From assembly GCA_947629715.1 (NCBI GenBank), contig CANRET010000003.1:21193-85192 (forward strand): 64,000 nucleotides of DNA, read 5' to 3'. Of this stretch, positions 35,189 to 42,183 are shown in pieces (position 1 is the first letter of the stretch; every line of letters starts with the position of its first letter). Made by a program: the position numbers and the translations under genes. The DNA is from an uncultured Akkermansia sp. Lineage in GTDB: Bacteria; Verrucomicrobiota; Verrucomicrobiia; Verrucomicrobiales; Akkermansiaceae. The notes beneath the pieces were generated by a model. It had not been told where the DNA came from, searched no databases, and saw only the letters and a list, made by a program, of their open reading frames with translations.

Positions 35189-37396
35189 ATGGATCCGATA
35201 TACTACGTTATTTACGGGACGCTTCTGCTTTTGTCCGTATTCGGGTTAAAGGTAGGTGTGAGCAATGATGCGGCGAACTTTTTAAACTCATCGCTTGGAT
35301 GTCGCGCCGGATCATTTTACGCTGTTGCAGCGGTGGCGGCGCTCGGTGTGTTGCTGGGCGCCAGCTTTTCCAGCGGGATGATGGAAGTTGCACGCAGTGG
35401 TGTGTTCAACCCGCGCATGTTCAATTTTCATGAGGTAATGCTCTTATTTTTGGCGGTGATGATTTCCAACGTCATCCTGCTTGATGTGTACAATACACTC
35501 GGCTTGCCCACATCGACTACGATATCGCTCGTGTTTGCGTTGCTGGGATCCTCTATCGGCATGGCAGTGTACAGCAAGGATATGGCCACGGATGATGCGC
35601 CATTGGCTGTTTATATTAACACGAGCAATGCATTCGCTATCGTTGTGGCTATCTTTGTTTCGGTGGTTATCGCCTTCACGCTCGGTTCCGCCATCATGTG
35701 GTTTGCGCGTTTGCTTTTCAGCTTCCACTACACTCGTGCCTACAGGTACATTGGTCCTCTGTGGAGTGGATCAGCGCTCACCGCCATTACCTATTTTGCC
35801 GTTTTCAAGGGTCTTAAAGACAGCTCCATGCTTTCTTCGGAGATGAAGGAAGCGTTGAATGCTGACGTAGGAGCAACGATGACATGGTGTTGGGTGGCAT
35901 GGTTAGCGATCATGGCGTTTTTGCAATATGTGTGCCGCGTAAATACACTGAGAATAGCGGTGCTGAGCGGAACAGGCGCTTTGGCGCTGGCGTTTGCCGG
36001 CAATGATCTGGTGAACTTCATAGGCGTGTTTATGGCGGCGCAGACGAGCATGGATATTGCTGCCAATCACGTGGGTGATGTGTCGGGGATGATGATGAGC
36101 GAGTTGGCAGATACGGCTATTCAAGCCAATCCACTTTATTTACTTACAGCCGGGCTTATCATGGTAGCGTCGCTCTTTCTCTCCAAGAATGCGCGCAAGG
36201 TGACGGAAACGGAGCTCAAACTCTCCTCTGCCAACACAGGCAAGGAACGGTTCGGTTCCAGTTTGGCGGCTCGTGTGATGGTTCGCTATGCGCTCAATAC
36301 TGCCCGCTTCATTGAACGCATTACGCCCGAACCCATCGCTCGCTTTGTAGGAAATCGCTTTGCGCCGCTCTCGCCGGAGGAGGAAACGGGCGCCAACTAC
36401 GACTTGGTGCGTGGTTCGGTAAACTTGACGACAGCCGCGCTTCTCATTTCCATTGCCACGTCCATGAAGATGCCGCTCTCTACGACTTACGTCACCTTTA
36501 TGGTGGCCATGGGGTCTTCGTTGGCGGATCGAGCATGGGGACGCGATAGCGCGGTGTACCGCATTACCGGTGTGCTCACGGTGACAGGAGGCTGGTTTTT
36601 GACTGCCATCGGTGCGTGCTTGGCGTCTTTTTTGGTGGCGTTGGCATTGTCGTACGGCGGTGTATGGACGCAGTATGGCATGATTGTTTTGGCGCTTGCC
36701 CTCTTGGCGCGCTCCACCTTCCTGGCGCACAGCGACAAGCAGGAGTACAAACTGCTGGATGTGCGTAAGGATTCCCAAGTGTACGAGTATGGCGCTGCCG
36801 CCGCGGGGCGTCTCGGGCGTATGGTCGGCATCTACAATGCCATGGTCAAGGCGTTGTTGGTGGAGGATCGAGATTCGCTGAAAAGGCTGCGCAAGAAGGC
36901 TCGCTCCATTAAGCAAGATCTCAAGCTTGTCAAGGAGAATGAGGTCTTGCCCACACTCGCTTCTATCCCGAAAGATCAGGCGGATCGAGGACAGCTCATT
37001 TTCCGCATTGTCGAGATATCCATTTCCACTTGTGATTGTTTGGTCACGCTTGTGAAGGCTGCTTACAACCACATTGACAATAATCACACCGGATTGAACG
37101 ATGACCAGGCGAAAGATCTGCTGGCTCTCACCGGCAAAATCGGACGCTTCTACCCGAATATTTTGGATATGCTCAAGGCAGGTGATTACGTTGGCATTGA
37201 TAAATTGCTCACCGGAAGTGAGGAGTTGGGACAAGAGTTTGCGGATTTCATTACGCGGCATCTTATGCAAAACGCCTCGGATGAAAGCGGCATGCGCACG
37301 GGTATTCTTTACCTAACGCTTCTCAATGAAACGCGTGCCATGGTGAGCCACGCTTTCGCCCTTATCCGCTGCATTGAGGAACTCTACAAGGGGTGA
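35189..37396 (+). CDS. PiT-family inorganic phosphate transporter with C-terminal helical (PhoU-like) domain
   Basis: GVSNDAANF, LPTSTT, FAGNDLVNF, PLSTTYV repeated PiT motifs. Confidence 0.88.
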   Translation: MDPIYYVIYGTLLLLSVFGLKVGVSNDAANFLNSSLGCRAGSFYAVAAVAALGVLLGASFSSGMMEVARSGVFNPRMFNFHEVMLLFLAVMISNVILLDVYNTLGLPTSTTISLVFALLGSSIGMAVYSKDMATDDAPLAVYINTSNAFAIVVAIFVSVVIAFTLGSAIMWFARLLFSFHYTRAYRYIGPLWSGSALTAITYFAVFKGLKDSSMLSSEMKEALNADVGATMTWCWVAWLAIMAFLQYVCRVNTLRIAVLSGTGALALAFAGNDLVNFIGVFMAAQTSMDIAANHVGDVSGMMMSELADTAIQANPLYLLTAGLIMVASLFLSKNARKVTETELKLSSANTGKERFGSSLAARVMVRYALNTARFIERITPEPIARFVGNRFAPLSPEEETGANYDLVRGSVNLTTAALLISIATSMKMPLSTTYVTFMVAMGSSLADRAWGRDSAVYRITGVLTVTGGWFLTAIGACLASFLVALALSYGGVWTQYGMIVLALALLARSTFLAHSDKQEYKLLDVRKDSQVYEYGAAAAGRLGRMVGIYNAMVKALLVEDRDSLKRLRKKARSIKQDLKLVKENEVLPTLASIPKDQADRGQLIFRIVEISISTCDCLVTLVKAAYNHIDNNHTGLNDDQAKDLLALTGKIGRFYPNILDMLKAGDYVGIDKLLTGSEELGQEFADFITRHLMQNASDESGMRTGILYLTLLNETRAMVSHAFALIRCIEELYKG

Positions 37397-38181
37397 TTGC
37401 CGACAGAAGAAAGGTCACCGGTAACGATGCGACGGAAGAAAGCATCGGCCTCTGCGCTATCCGGAGGGGAGGGGAAGGGAAGAGCCTCTATTTGTCGGCG
37501 CAGTGTGGCCATCTCGCGTTGAATGTAGGAGAGAGCTTCAGGGATGGGAGCGCCGTACGCTTTCTCCACATTCCCAGTGCGGAGGGTGAGCAATTCATTC
37601 ACCGTACCTTGCATGTCGCGAGGAAGCATTGCTGCACATAGATCGGAAAAAAGCATGGGCGCAGGAGTATGCTCTTTTAATACCCAGCGAGCTGCCAGCA
37701 GCGGGCGAATAGCATAGAAATATTCTTTGTATATGGGCTTTGCAACAGTCAGGTAACGTTTGTAGGAGCTGTCGGCCATGCCCAGGTAGCGCGAGGCCAG
37801 TCGCACGGGCTGCATGAGGCGACGGGTTACTGCACGAAACTCCTCCAGCCACGGAGATGTGCGGTAAACGATGGGAGAGTCGGCCCATTCGAAGACGCTG
37901 ATATTGGAGCGCAACGCGAGAAGGAGAGTCTTGCGTAAGTCCCAACCTTTGATGTCGTACACCTCGTTGAGTTCCCACTCGATCGTATCCCGAAGAGGAA
38001 GAATGCCCAGGTATTTCTCCCGCGGGTGCACGTAGATGCAGCGAACATCATAGTCACTTGTTTCGGAGGGAAAGCCCCAGGCACGACTGCCGGATTCAGC
38101 GGCGAAGATGATCTGACAGGCGTGTGTCGCTTCCAGCGAGGAGAGTTTGGCGAGTATTTGATCAGTGATGCTCAGATTCAT
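37384..38181 (-). CDS. Pol-beta superfamily nucleotidyltransferase (PF10127 RlaP/YcgL-like)
   Basis: ESGSRAWGFPSETSDYDVRCIY, GWDLRK, EWADSPIVY, KEYFYAIRP. Confidence 0.88.
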   Translation of the reverse strand: MNLSITDQILAKLSSLEATHACQIIFAAESGSRAWGFPSETSDYDVRCIYVHPREKYLGILPLRDTIEWELNEVYDIKGWDLRKTLLLALRSNISVFEWADSPIVYRTSPWLEEFRAVTRRLMQPVRLASRYLGMADSSYKRYLTVAKPIYKEYFYAIRPLLAARWVLKEHTPAPMLFSDLCAAMLPRDMQGTVNELLTLRTGNVEKAYGAPIPEALSYIQREMATLRRQIEALPFPSPPDSAEADAFFRRIVTGDLSSVGNHPL

Positions 38182-39268
38182 TGTGACGAAGAATGCGAAG
38201 TTGGGCGAGATCACGCTTCCAATCACCAAGTTGAGGGGTATCCGGGAGCGTTGATTTTTCAAAGAGGGATTTCATGTCGGCAATTTCGCATTGTACAAGC
38301 TGCAATGCCTCAGAGAAGGGTATTCGCCCGGCGCGAATATCGCGCAGCAGTGCATTATCGTACGTGCGCTGCACATGGATACGACCTTCGGTGGCAATTT
38401 CACGAGCTGTGTGGAGAAGGCGCAGCACGTGCATCATGTGCTTGGTGTCGTAGTTCCCTTCATCGGCAGGAAGTTTTTTATCCGTTTGCAGACGTGTTTT
38501 ATTACGTTTTTCCTGCCACTCGTGGTACTGAGCGATTGTGCGGCAGTGAGCGGCGTATGCCATAGTGTCCACCTGCATGCAGGCAAGGAAGGTCGATGCT
38601 GCATTGATGGCGGGGCATGCCACATTCGTGCCATCTCGTCCGAATAAACCGACAGGGTTGGTTTGGCGGTAGAGCGCCCACACATTCTGCTCCATCGGTC
38701 TGGCAGCAATATCTTTCCAGGTGAGTCCCGCCGTTCCCATCCACTTGATTAGCGGTTCCGTATTTTCGCGGTTGAGCACCCGAGCAAAATCTGCCAATGT
38801 TGCAGGGGCAGGGGGAGTCATGGTTGCCTTGTTATGCGTAGCGTGTATTCGCTTCAGCTGCGCAAGCGCATTGCCGACATAGGTCTTCGCACATACTTTT
38901 GAGAGGGGGTGACGACCGACAAAAAAGCGCGTGAGCCACTCGGCGCAATAGAGCTGTTGGCGTTGCCCCATGCAGGCCCAGAGCTCCAAAGCGCCGCTAT
39001 TATTGAGCTCAAGTTGACGGAGAAACTCGCCGAGCTCGGTGTATTGCCTATCGTGCGTGGAATCCTGCACAACCTTAGGAGCACAACCGGAGAGGACATC
39101 CTCTAGGCGTGCCATGTAAACCCCTTTGAAATCGTCATCGCTTGTTGGTGTATCCAAGCCGTATGCCCTGCTGCCGGCTACGCAGGAGAGACATATCAGG
39201 GGACGAATGTTGTGGACGTCATACTGCACGCAGTTCCCGATTTCAATCGTCTTTCCAGTCCACTTCAA
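38162..39268 (-). CDS. Pol-beta superfamily nucleotidyltransferase (PF10127 RlaP-like, long form)
   Basis: AGSRAYGLDTPTSDDDFKGVY, ELGEF, YDTKHMMHVLRLL; exact start uncertain. Confidence 0.88.
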   Translation of the reverse strand: MKWTGKTIEIGNCVQYDVHNIRPLICLSCVAGSRAYGLDTPTSDDDFKGVYMARLEDVLSGCAPKVVQDSTHDRQYTELGEFLRQLELNNSGALELWACMGQRQQLYCAEWLTRFFVGRHPLSKVCAKTYVGNALAQLKRIHATHNKATMTPPAPATLADFARVLNRENTEPLIKWMGTAGLTWKDIAARPMEQNVWALYRQTNPVGLFGRDGTNVACPAINAASTFLACMQVDTMAYAAHCRTIAQYHEWQEKRNKTRLQTDKKLPADEGNYDTKHMMHVLRLLHTAREIATEGRIHVQRTYDNALLRDIRAGRIPFSEALQLVQCEIADMKSLFEKSTLPDTPQLGDWKRDLAQLRILRHNESEHH

Positions 39269-39812
39269 TTTTTATTTCTCTCCCATTTTTATTCTCGTAG
39301 AGCACGTAGCCGTTCCGCACGCCAAATTGGTGCACAGCCATGGTTACTTTCACATCGTAGCAGCAGTATTTGGCTATATCGAGCAGGCATTGCACGTCTT
39401 TTGTCTTTTCGTATTGAGCCCACCACTTGAGAGCATCGGTGCCGTCTGCGGTTTTACTATGTCCGCCTAAGGTAGGGCGTGCTACAGAATCAAGTTTGAG
39501 ACGGTGGCCGAGGCGATCGGAGAGGTAGAGGCAGAGGTCGAGGTTGTGAGTGATTTCAGAGATCGTCCAGAAAGTGAAAGGCTGCAGCACGCCGTAATCA
39601 AAGCCGAGATGGTTATAACCGACTACCAAGTCGGCAAGTTTCAACTGCTCTATGAGTTGTTCCGCTTGATCTTCCGTGTAGATAGAATAGGCACTGGCGG
39701 CGGTGGAAAAGGTGACTCCCACGGACATGCCCATTTGGGCGGTTTCATGCCAACCACCAACTTCAGAGGCAGAGCGGCGTGTTTCAAGATCAAAGTACAC
39801 GATGTTTTTCAT
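39243..39812 (-). CDS. RNase H-like DEDD 3'-5' exonuclease domain protein
   Basis: YFDLET (ExoI), GYNHLGFD (ExoII), YCCYDV (ExoIII). Confidence 0.85.
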   Translation of the reverse strand: MKNIVYFDLETRRSASEVGGWHETAQMGMSVGVTFSTAASAYSIYTEDQAEQLIEQLKLADLVVGYNHLGFDYGVLQPFTFWTISEITHNLDLCLYLSDRLGHRLKLDSVARPTLGGHSKTADGTDALKWWAQYEKTKDVQCLLDIAKYCCYDVKVTMAVHQFGVRNGYVLYENKNGREIKIEVDWKDD

Positions 39813-40276
39813 GATTGAGAAGAGATGTTGTGTAGCGCTTCGTAGATGACAATGCCAACGGCGGTAGATAAATTGAGCGAGCGTGCGTGCTCTCCCGGCA
39901 TCGGAATGCGCAACGTTGTCTGCGCATGCTTTTGGAGCAGACTTTCCGGCAGGCCACGTGTTTCGGATCCGAAAACGAAATAATCGCCGTCACTCAATGG
40001 AATCAAGGGATTCCAAATGCTTCGCGTGGCCTTGGTGGAGAGCAGATGGAAATGTGCAGCGGGCGCTGCAGCAGCCCTCAGTTCATCCAGAGAATCCCAA
40101 AGTCGCAAATCGACGTGTTTCCAATAATCCAGTCCGGTGCGGCGCAGGTGTTTTTCATCCAAACTGAAGCCCAGCGGGCGGATGAGGTGGAGTCTCGAAC
40201 CCGTAGCCACGGCTAGACGCCCTGCCGCGCCGGCGTTGTGCGGAATTTCCGGATGGTGGAGGACAATGTGAAGCAT
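39809..40276 (-). CDS. trmL: tRNA (cytidine/uridine-34-2'-O)-methyltransferase
   Basis: LHHPEIPHNAG, LHLIRPLGF, RRTGLDYW, FGSETRGLP, RSLNLS. Confidence 0.93.
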   Translation of the reverse strand: MLHIVLHHPEIPHNAGAAGRLAVATGSRLHLIRPLGFSLDEKHLRRTGLDYWKHVDLRLWDSLDELRAAAAPAAHFHLLSTKATRSIWNPLIPLSDGDYFVFGSETRGLPESLLQKHAQTTLRIPMPGEHARSLNLSTAVGIVIYEALHNISSQS

Positions 40277-40291
40277 GGTTGTGTCTGAGAA

Positions 40292-40540
40292 TTACAGAGG
40301 GGCGAAGTCAGTAATGCGCGCCGTTTCCAAGTCAGCTGGGGAGAGAACGAGACTCACGACCTGTCCGGGCTGGAGGGCTCCGAGACGTTCTGCTGTGCGT
40401 CGTTGCATGTATGCAATCGTTGTCTTCCCATTTGGCAGGGTGGCGCGGAAGGCGGTGGACGCGATACGCTCCGTCAACGTACCGGTTGCATGGATTGCTT
40501 GGGCAGGGTAGCAACCTGCTGCTTTTTTGCGTGAACTCAT
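40292..40540 (-). CDS. Divergent translation initiation factor IF-1-like S1/OB protein
   Basis: GTLTE..AFRATLPNGK..IAY..LQPGQVVSLVLSPADLETARI aligns with IF-1 (GTV.E..MFRV.L.NG..ILPGD.V.VELSPYDL.RGRI). Confidence 0.75.
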   Translation of the reverse strand: MSSRKKAAGCYPAQAIHATGTLTERIASTAFRATLPNGKTTIAYMQRRTAERLGALQPGQVVSLVLSPADLETARITDFAPL

Positions 40541-40578: not shown

Positions 40579-42183
40579 TCAGAGCAGTATGTCTAAGCCG
40601 GAGCCGATGATATCTTTGACTTTTTGCACAGGCGGCTGCACAGGAGCTGGCGAGGGTGGGGCGCTGCTTTTTGTCTTATCGTCATCCTCATGATGTGGCA
40701 ATGAGGATGTGGCGTTAACAGGCAACCAATCGCCAAAGACATTGTTGAGAGATTGGACGGCCGTGTCAGAAAGAGAGGACATAAGTTGAGGCAGGATTGT
40801 GGCGAAACGCACGGAGAAGTCCTCATGGGGATCATCCAATGTGCCACTCAGATTGACATGCACCCAGATGTAGCCCGGAAGTTCTCCGGCTTTCTGAAAC
40901 AGTTGGTTAGCAACGGGGATGTTTTCGAGACCAAGCTGCACCGCTAATTGCTGAGGCACGGCGATTTTGAGTGTGCCGGAAAGCGAGCCGTCCGTGCCGG
41001 TAATCACGCGCCCGCGCACGATGAATTTTCCGTCCTCAGAACGAGCATCAATACGATCCCACAGCCAAGCATTGTGTATATTATGCTGCTCGTCCGAGTA
41101 AGGAAAACTGATATTACATGCGGCTTTCTCGAATTTGATGGAGCGGTATGGAGTTGTGTCGTTGACTCGGATTTTCGAGAGTATGGGTAAATCTTCCAGC
41201 ACCCCATCCTCCAAGCGTATTTTGCCACTCGCCTCCCAAGCGGCGCCAATTTGCCCTTTAAAATCCAGGTATCCTGCCAGAGAGCCCGACAGTTTTTTGC
41301 GCCAATCAGCCTTGAGCAAACGTGCTACGTTGGCGCGCTGTATATCGGCTCGAACTTTCCAGATTCCGGTACCGGGGGAGTACGTGGCTTTGGCTCGGAT
41401 GCTTCCCGGAGACAAAAGAATGTGGCATGAAGTAAGCTTGATGTCGTCGCGCGTGATTTTAACGGTAGCTGATTTTACGCCGCTTTCTGCCAGCCATGCG
41501 TACGGAGACACAATGTGTCCGTTTTCAAGATTGAGCGTCCACGTGCTATCACCCTCCTCGGGGGAGGGGAGGGCAGTCATTCGGTAACCTTTCAGCCCGA
41601 ATTCTCGGTTGTTGGCGAGCAACAAAGAGTCCGCGTAGTGCACCTCGAGGGTGCGTGCCTGTACGGCGCGGAAGAATCCGAAATTGCTATTTTTCGTCCT
41701 CTCCTCTCCTTGCGAGCGATCCATTACTGGTTTTTCTCGCTCTTTTTTTACTCCGTCTGTTGTTGATGTCCCGGCTTGAAAAACTAGGCGCAACTCCTCC
41801 GCCGAAAGTTGATTCATGCGCAAAATACGACTCAAAAGAGCTTTTCGATCAATGCTTACGTGGAGCCTGTGAATGCTCAGTTCCTTGAATGCTCCCGCCC
41901 GGAGCGCTGTGAACTGCGGTACGGTAATTTTATTCCCACTTACTTCCAAGTTCTCCGGGATGGACACTTGCTGCGCGTGCGTTGCTTGCTGCAGCAGGTC
42001 TTCAAGCTTGGCACGACAGCTTTCCCCTTGCAGCCACGATACAAAGAAAAAATACGCGATGATCATGAGAAGCCCCACCACGCTCATGATGGAGATAAAA
42101 ATCAAGGGGAGGCGATGAGCGACGCCAGTGTCAGGTGCGTTGGATTGTTTGGTCAGGAAGTCTCCTCGTTTTCGGCGTGCCAT
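40579..42183 (-). CDS. Hypothetical envelope protein, AsmA-like
   Basis: N-terminal TM anchor, beta-rich body, C-terminal VNLSGTLDDP motif. Confidence 0.7.
   Translation of the reverse strand: MARRKRGDFLTKQSNAPDTGVAHRLPLIFISIMSVVGLLMIIAYFFFVSWLQGESCRAKLEDLLQQATHAQQVSIPENLEVSGNKITVPQFTALRAGAFKELSIHRLHVSIDRKALLSRILRMNQLSAEELRLVFQAGTSTTDGVKKEREKPVMDRSQGEERTKNSNFGFFRAVQARTLEVHYADSLLLANNREFGLKGYRMTALPSPEEGDSTWTLNLENGHIVSPYAWLAESGVKSATVKITRDDIKLTSCHILLSPGSIRAKATYSPGTGIWKVRADIQRANVARLLKADWRKKLSGSLAGYLDFKGQIGAAWEASGKIRLEDGVLEDLPILSKIRVNDTTPYRSIKFEKAACNISFPYSDEQHNIHNAWLWDRIDARSEDGKFIVRGRVITGTDGSLSGTLKIAVPQQLAVQLGLENIPVANQLFQKAGELPGYIWVHVNLSGTLDDPHEDFSVRFATILPQLMSSLSDTAVQSLNNVFGDWLPVNATSSLPHHEDDDKTKSSAPPSPAPVQPPVQKVKDIIGSGLDILL

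Follow-up and report, generated by a model that had tools for sequence, protein, structure and literature searches.

Within a 64,000-nt stretch of DNA from an uncultured Akkermansia sp. (assembly GCA_947629715.1, contig CANRET010000003.1, positions 21,193 to 85,192; the whole stretch is termed the window), five closely packed minus-strand genes occupy positions 37384-40540. They most probably represent a housekeeping unit containing a TrmL-like tRNA methyltransferase gene (trmL) and an exonuclease gene (exo), followed by an independent, mobile pair of genes for RlaP-family nucleotidyltransferases (NTases) acting as one RNA-end-extending enzyme. The five-gene neighbourhood is a chance juxtaposition limited to one Akkermansia subclade, and nearness of the pair to trmL and exo reflects the position of a cassette, not a dedicated pathway. 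An earlier reading of the letters alone (the sequence-only reading) had placed all five genes correctly and treated them as one module. The latter view gave way in genome comparisons, as the exonuclease is core (40 of 41 genomes of the order), the trmL–exo neighbourhood genus-wide, and the RlaP pair accessory (9 of 24 Akkermansia species sampled). The features of the locus are as follows.

37384..38181, minus strand: short RlaP nucleotidyltransferase, 265 amino acids (aa), canonical PF10127 type
38162..39229, minus strand: long RlaP nucleotidyltransferase, 355 aa from GTG 39229 (368 aa from TTG 39268)
39243..39812, minus strand: stand-alone DEDDy 3′-5′ exonuclease, 189 aa, PF13482
39809..40276, minus strand: TrmL-like SpoU-class tRNA 2′-O-methyltransferase, 155 aa, PF00588
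40292..40540, minus strand: IF-1-like S1/OB-fold small protein, 82 aa, sub-threshold infA match
40579..42183, minus strand: membrane-anchored 534-aa protein without a known family; 38 nt separate its gene from the downstream IF-1-like gene
36500..39380, no strand: recombination tract with the RlaP pair, from the nucleotide identity profile against locus L068

Distribution and mobility of the RlaP pair in Akkermansia

The genome (2.2 Mb in 116 contigs, 97.6% completeness) contained exactly two PF10127 genes, both inside the window. Wherever the long RlaP gene occurred among the sampled species of the genus, the short gene or its remnant stood beside it (9/9): seven species carried an intact long-then-short pair, one was the genome studied here, and one (G009) retained a remnant only. 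In the eight other RlaP-bearing representatives, exo, trmL and the gene for a PHO4-family transporter, which flanks the pair in our window, were all absent within 8 kb of the pair. Across all loci fetched, the Akkermansia pair was found at eight or more different sites, most commonly after hisH-hisA-hisF, and further after clpX-tsaD-unk296, near a tadA-like gene and in four singleton contexts. Both the clpX-tsaD-unk296 and the hisHAF sites are present in the genome studied here, without an RlaP pair nearby. The 296-aa protein encoded after tsaD in Akkermansia (L004:5059-5949; C67:4313-5194 in our genome) had no Pfam or PADLOC match, and its conserved gene directly precedes the RlaP pair in several species of the genus. 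No conserved flanking motifs or att-like sites were seen by eye around the pair in its various Akkermansia contexts.

The order exo, RlaP pair, PHO4 was shared by our genome with only two further, related lineages, L068 and L072. Comparison with L068 revealed 67-78% nucleotide identity over trmL and most of exo, 87-100% from ~39380 over the whole RlaP pair and on into the PHO4 gene (its 3′ part), and again 71-84% beyond ~36500. Such a tract of high identity within flanks of low identity shows recent recombination of a segment that holds the pair, but neither trmL nor most of exo.

The variety of contexts also bears on a far-fetched idea, namely that the pair is tied to anticodon-loop modification and restores positions 34-37 beside TrmL (Nm34), TsaD (t6A37) or a TadA-like deaminase (I34). 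Three of the roughly eight Akkermansia contexts do have one of these genes within two genes of the pair, and a proposed task of RlaP is to put back wobble nucleotides that RloC-type nucleases take out. However, this pattern was spotted after the fact, the pair stands most commonly at the histidine operon, and in four other contexts nothing links it to tRNA genes. A search with TrmL found no such neighbourhood among the 66 loci outside Akkermansia, and the TadA-like gene is divergent, with another gene between it and the pair. We therefore regard this connection as very improbable.

Gene spacing and transcription

Genes of the block are separated by few nucleotides or overlap: the IF-1-like gene ends 15 nt before trmL, the trmL stop and exo start share 4 nt (ATGA), a gap of 13 nt lies between exo and the long RlaP gene, and the ATG of the short RlaP gene overlaps the stop of the long one by 20 nt. 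In a consensus scan, terminator-like sites were absent between the genes, and a promoter-like site (42734-42707) was found upstream of the 534-aa gene, which probably heads the transcription unit. As the sequence-only reading had supposed, packing appears close enough for co-transcription of the genes and, judged by spacing, the RlaP pair is most likely read through from a promoter upstream of the trmL–exo unit. At its 3′ end, the short RlaP gene overlaps the convergent PHO4-family transporter gene (735 aa) by 13 nt (37384-37396), leaving no intergenic room for a terminator.

The trmL–exo unit

The exonuclease matched PF13482 (E 2.2e-10, 41.2 bits; cut-off 22 bits). Its FDLET, NHxxFD and YCCYD motifs are invariant, as are residues D8, E10, D72, Y149 and D153, and from these features it is classed as a stand-alone DEDDy enzyme, with nothing pointing to RNA specifically. 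Among PDB folds, an AlphaFold2 model (pLDDT 92) came closest to DNA-polymerase proofreading domains, those of family B and T7 (E ~4e-6); the Foldseek probability of a match to exonuclease domains of polymerases was 1.00. Like these domains, the Akkermansia enzyme has this fold and all three Exo motifs (Y-x3-D among them), but it consists of only 189 aa and lacks a polymerase domain. This resemblance tells against the earlier proposal that the DEDD nuclease trims RNA ends.

In the genomes of the order that have it, the exonuclease is single-copy, at 48-78% identity; its family comprises ~6,000 clusters, annotated merely as 'ribonuclease H-like domain-containing protein'. Directly adjoining it, trmL was found in 24 of 24 sampled Akkermansia species, whether RlaP was present or not; the two genes are not adjacent in other families of the order. 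The region 3′ of exo varies by species (e.g. a BipA-like GTPase, a 1949-aa protein or a 290-aa protein), and exo thus marks a synteny break.

The TrmL-like protein scored above the cut-off of PF00588 (SpoU_methylase; E 6.4e-29, 101 bits), and its best NCBIfam match was TIGR00185 (E 5.6e-46, 156 bits vs. a cut-off of 190.6 bits). The IF-1-like protein remained below the thresholds of both relevant models (infA, 28.3 vs. 61.15 bits; eIF-1a, 20.7 vs. 30.2 bits). It is not the housekeeping IF-1; a canonical infA, 58% identical to Escherichia coli InfA at the protein level, lies on contig C20. Its gene accompanies that of the 534-aa protein, for which Pfam, NCBIfam and PADLOC gave no match. Only some Akkermansia have both genes (47-55% identity), which are syntenic in G014, G001, L068 and L072. 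Across lineages, the proteins of this gene couple are thus far less alike than the flanking ExbB and PHO4 proteins (91-97%), and the window segment 40292-42183 is fast-evolving or recombining.

These data speak to the proposal of a dedicated, ligase-independent operon in which the exonuclease trims tRNA or rRNA 3′ ends, the NTase pair re-extends them and TrmL re-modifies the tRNA. Such an operon would fit the tight packing, the overlaps and the lack of an internal terminator, and three Akkermansia lineages, with 15-20% divergence between their TrmL and exonuclease proteins, have retained the arrangement. Moreover, DEDD exonucleases and RlaP both work on 3′-OH ends. Yet exo and trmL are core genes and neighbours with or without the pair, the recombination tract moves the pair without trmL or most of exo, and the fold of the exonuclease is closest to DNA-polymerase proofreading domains. 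In our survey of RlaP loci (one genome scanned per species; the best 80 loci retained, chiefly from Bacteroidota and Verrucomicrobiota), one of 80 loci had the pair behind exo, and this order was missing from all eight other representatives of the genus that have the pair. This outcome of a neighbourhood survey comes close to a linkage unique to one genome, which the sequence-only reading itself had named as counting against it. In addition, ribotoxins leave 2′,3′-cyclic-phosphate or 3′-phosphate ends that RlaP refuses, the cluster has no end-healing phosphoesterase, and an RtcB ligase is encoded elsewhere in the genome. A dedicated operon is thus unlikely.

Two RlaP subtypes with intact active sites

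Both RlaP proteins scored above the PF10127 gathering cut-off (23 bits) and displayed the Pol-beta signature of GS, DxD and a third carboxylate. The short protein matched nearly the entire profile (E 1.3e-72, 244.9 bits, profile positions 2-249 of 249) and the phage family phrog_14344 (E 4e-56), and its motifs ESGSRAWG...SDYDV...YDIKGWD were kept in 21 aligned orthologues. The long protein matched PF10127 in its N-terminal motif region only (E 1e-9, 38.9 bits) and aligned over its full length with phage family phrog_388 (E 4e-34). Its residues G19, S20, D31 and D33 were invariant, and E65 was E or D in 22 of 23 sequences. Similarity between the long and the short protein was recognisable only around the 40-residue motif region. 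Hence, the earlier description of two intact NTases of different subtypes was sound, as was the length of 265 aa given for the short one. The 368 aa given for the long one should be revised to 355 aa: homologues of 353-356 aa begin with MQYD or MEYN, which places the start at GTG 39229 instead of the upstream TTG.

The AlphaFold2 model of the long protein (pLDDT 91) has additional, beta-rich sequence inserted at roughly residues 149-220. A fold search of PDB with this model returned nothing better than E 5e-3; the weak matches comprised the NTase cores of ANT(4′), HalB and MNT, as well as spurious ones to RRF, all at E 5e-3 or worse. Sequence searches of PDB with both RlaP proteins and the exonuclease yielded no match.

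Paired and fused RlaP genes beyond Akkermansia

In the RlaP locus survey, a short gene was found within 300 nt of the long one in 60 of 80 loci, 45 of them in the order short-then-long and 15 long-then-short; 14 of the latter 15 were from Akkermansia. In four loci the pair was split by 1.6-5.8 kb of inserted cargo, in about 14 the long gene stood alone, and in two the short partner was lost at a contig edge or the contig was too short to tell. RtcB was encoded nearby in eight loci, WYL proteins in eight and Band_7 proteins in five, and genes for PF09414 RNA ligases and AAA proteins adjoin some distant pairs.

Individual loci showed insertions. In a Flavobacterium (L122:1178-6880), the short and long genes are separated by IetA/IetS together with Kinase-PolyVal and DUF418 genes, and in a member of the Lentisphaeraceae (L110:5291-6343) by a RhuM (PDC-S05) gene. 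A Bacteroidetes metagenome-assembled genome contains a small GIY-YIG-like open reading frame (L133:5806-6100), recognised by eye from MNGYMYILECSDGSYYTGST..., situated between RtcB and the pair and in frame with the short RlaP gene downstream.

Besides separate genes, natural fusions exist. The 613-aa protein P0047 resembles the short type over residues 2-238 (E 2e-40) and the long type over residues 270-609 (E 2e-43). Used as a query, it matched at least 120 clusters at full coverage, with lengths of 600-660 aa; among them are proteins of cultured species of Luteolibacter and Haloferula, which belong to the same bacterial order as Akkermansia. These fusions of ~610 aa, annotated as 'nucleotidyltransferase domain-containing protein', join both subtypes with intact motifs. 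They differ from the Akkermansia locus in being single polypeptides with the short type N-terminal, whereas the locus has two genes, and in reverse order. This fusion family and the start/stop overlap in our window together constitute the main evidence that short and long RlaP act as one enzyme.

In phages, the two types occur singly and in separate phage groups, with the long type resembling phrog_388 and the short type phrog_14344; phage T4 NrdC.11 belongs to this comparison. In Salmonella phage PVP-SE1 (L071:1923-6065), the long-type gp166 lies ~1.8 kb downstream of the CCA-adding gp159 in the same gene block.

Burroughs and Aravind, as cited by later papers, reportedly named the RlaP family in 2016 and described RNA-repair neighbourhoods containing it. 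Distant Bacteroidota pairs next to RtcB or a PF09414 ligase, with Band_7, WYL and AAA genes, are of the same kind. The Akkermansia pair, by comparison, adjoins no such partners and is ordered long-short instead of short-long.

Several of these observations would also suit a role of the pair in conflict or defence, be it as an abortive-infection or toxin-antitoxin-like NTase pair or as a counter-measure tied to defence islands. It is accessory, with a patchy distribution and horizontal exchange; in other taxa, cargo including IetA/IetS and RhuM (PDC-S05) splits it; distant pairs lie near WYL, Band_7 and AAA genes; and RlaP of either type is common in large phages. In contrast, no gene of the locus had a PADLOC match below E 0.002: the long RlaP alone hit a model, CARF (E 0.0023, 15.5 bits), and the other genes hit none. 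The defence alternative in the sequence-only reading hence drew no backing from the defence library. Neither an effector, toxin nor sensor was found beside the pair in any Akkermansia context, where his, clpX-tsaD and trmL-exo genes are its neighbours, and characterised RlaPs modify RNA ends, not proteins. While we consider a defence system of this kind improbable, it overlaps with the RNA-end-extending enzyme proposed here, as repair of ribotoxin damage is itself conflict-related.

Expected activity and the RNA ligase

The sequence-only reading had called PF10127 proteins largely uncharacterised, a description now outdated. Two Pseudomonas members, PfRlaP and PaRlaP, add one or two nucleoside monophosphates (NMP) to RNA 3′-OH ends, with a preference for Mn2+ and for the 5′ half of a mimic of cleaved tRNA, whereas DNA, protein and 3′-phosphate ends are non-substrates (Carruthers, Fatma and Huang, bioRxiv 10.64898/2025.12.29.696909). 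According to the same study, RlaP improves aminoacylation of a repaired tRNA from which one anticodon-loop nucleotide had been lost, and its authors propose RlaP as an answer to ribotoxins that cut and then remove nucleotides. They also point out that the 3′-OH product is mismatched to RtcB, which needs a 3′-phosphate (bioRxiv 10.64898/2025.12.29.696909). Phage RlaPs were described likewise in a 2021 review. Neither this review nor the 2025 preprint mentions pairs, dimers or fusions of RlaP; family and activity are known, but the paired or fused form was not found described in the literature that could be reached.

Our two proteins share with PfRlaP and PaRlaP the Pfam family and the Pol-beta GS, DxD and third-carboxylate motifs, the short one over the whole profile, and by analogy would be expected to share the transfer of one or two NMP onto RNA 3′-OH. 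RNA-end repair, as proposed earlier, is the best reading of these NTases. The Pseudomonas enzymes, though, are encoded by single genes between rtcB and rtcA under RtcR control. The Akkermansia locus encodes two divergent, translationally coupled paralogues without a nearby ligase, RtcA or RtcR, and its long type has, according to the structure model, an additional inserted domain.

That neither rtcB nor another RNA ligase gene lies in the window had been seen correctly. The conclusion that the module lacks a ligase failed at the level of the genome, where one RtcB gene was identified on contig C10 (C10:17438-18622; L003:1426-2613). It lies within the trp operon, between homologues of trpE/trpG (Chorismate_bind, GATase) and trpD (Glycos_transf_3). 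With RtcB in 20 of 24 species, and thus near-universal across Akkermansia, a phylogenetic profile of the pair against it was uninformative. In most other Akkermansia, RtcB matches the Pfam model in two pieces, suggestive of a different subtype. The RNA-ligase neighbourhood of RlaP is thus missing at our locus but found around distant orthologous pairs, in the form of RtcB or an RNA ligase.

All three tRNA genes in the window lack an encoded CCA. The sequence-only reading had made this observation in support of 3′ ends depending on enzymes; however, a canonical class-II CCA-adding enzyme is encoded on contig C29, and CCA-less tRNA genes are ordinary where such an enzyme is present.

Proposed function of the locus

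Taken together, we propose that the locus consists of two units. The first would comprise the 534-aa membrane protein, the IF-1-like OB protein, the TrmL-like methyltransferase and the DEDDy exonuclease, with a genus-wide trmL–exo core. The second would be a horizontally exchanged cassette of long and short RlaP that now sits at the 3′ end of the first. As suggested by adjacency, translational coupling and natural fusions, long and short RlaP most likely form one heteromer, which would have two Pol-beta active sites. Its activity, predicted from homology to PfRlaP and PaRlaP, would be to add one or two nucleotides, template-free, to the 3′-OH of broken RNAs, for example a tRNA shortened after anticodon-nuclease cleavage. 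Resealing would then fall to an RNA ligase encoded elsewhere, either RtcB following an end-conversion step or an unrecognised ligase.

Several points weigh against this proposal. With a 13-nt gap and overlaps, trmL, exo and the pair are probably expressed together, and a local functional link is possible. A heteromer is not obligatory, given that about 14 of the 80 loci have only the long gene and that phages have just one type or the other. A PF09414 RNA ligase (5′-phosphate type) was not found in this genome, and for RtcB there is a chemical mismatch, since RlaP yields a 3′-OH and RtcB requires a 3′-phosphate. DEDD exonucleases, being two-metal enzymes, leave a 3′-OH and make no 3′-phosphate for RtcB; the exonuclease of this locus thus does not solve the mismatch.

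More tentatively, long and short RlaP might be two halves of a hitherto undescribed heteromeric, pseudo-dimeric enzyme for rebuilding RNA ends, whose two sites would work sequentially or differ in specificity. Under this possible, not favoured, extension, the enzyme would be fused in Luteolibacter and Haloferula, encoded by two coupled genes in Bacteroidota and Akkermansia, and carried in the latter as a cassette riding 3′ of his, clpX-tsaD and trmL-exo operons.

The locus thus provides no new pathway joining exonuclease, TrmL and NTases. What it does bring out is that RlaP, just characterised as a single protein, is commonly a conserved unit of two paralogues, fused in a whole clade. This suggests that biochemistry on single Pseudomonas RlaP proteins may miss a form with two active sites, and the pair bears on how RlaP products become RtcB-compatible. 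For Akkermansia, the locus illustrates the spread of an RNA-repair cassette among lineages by recombination.

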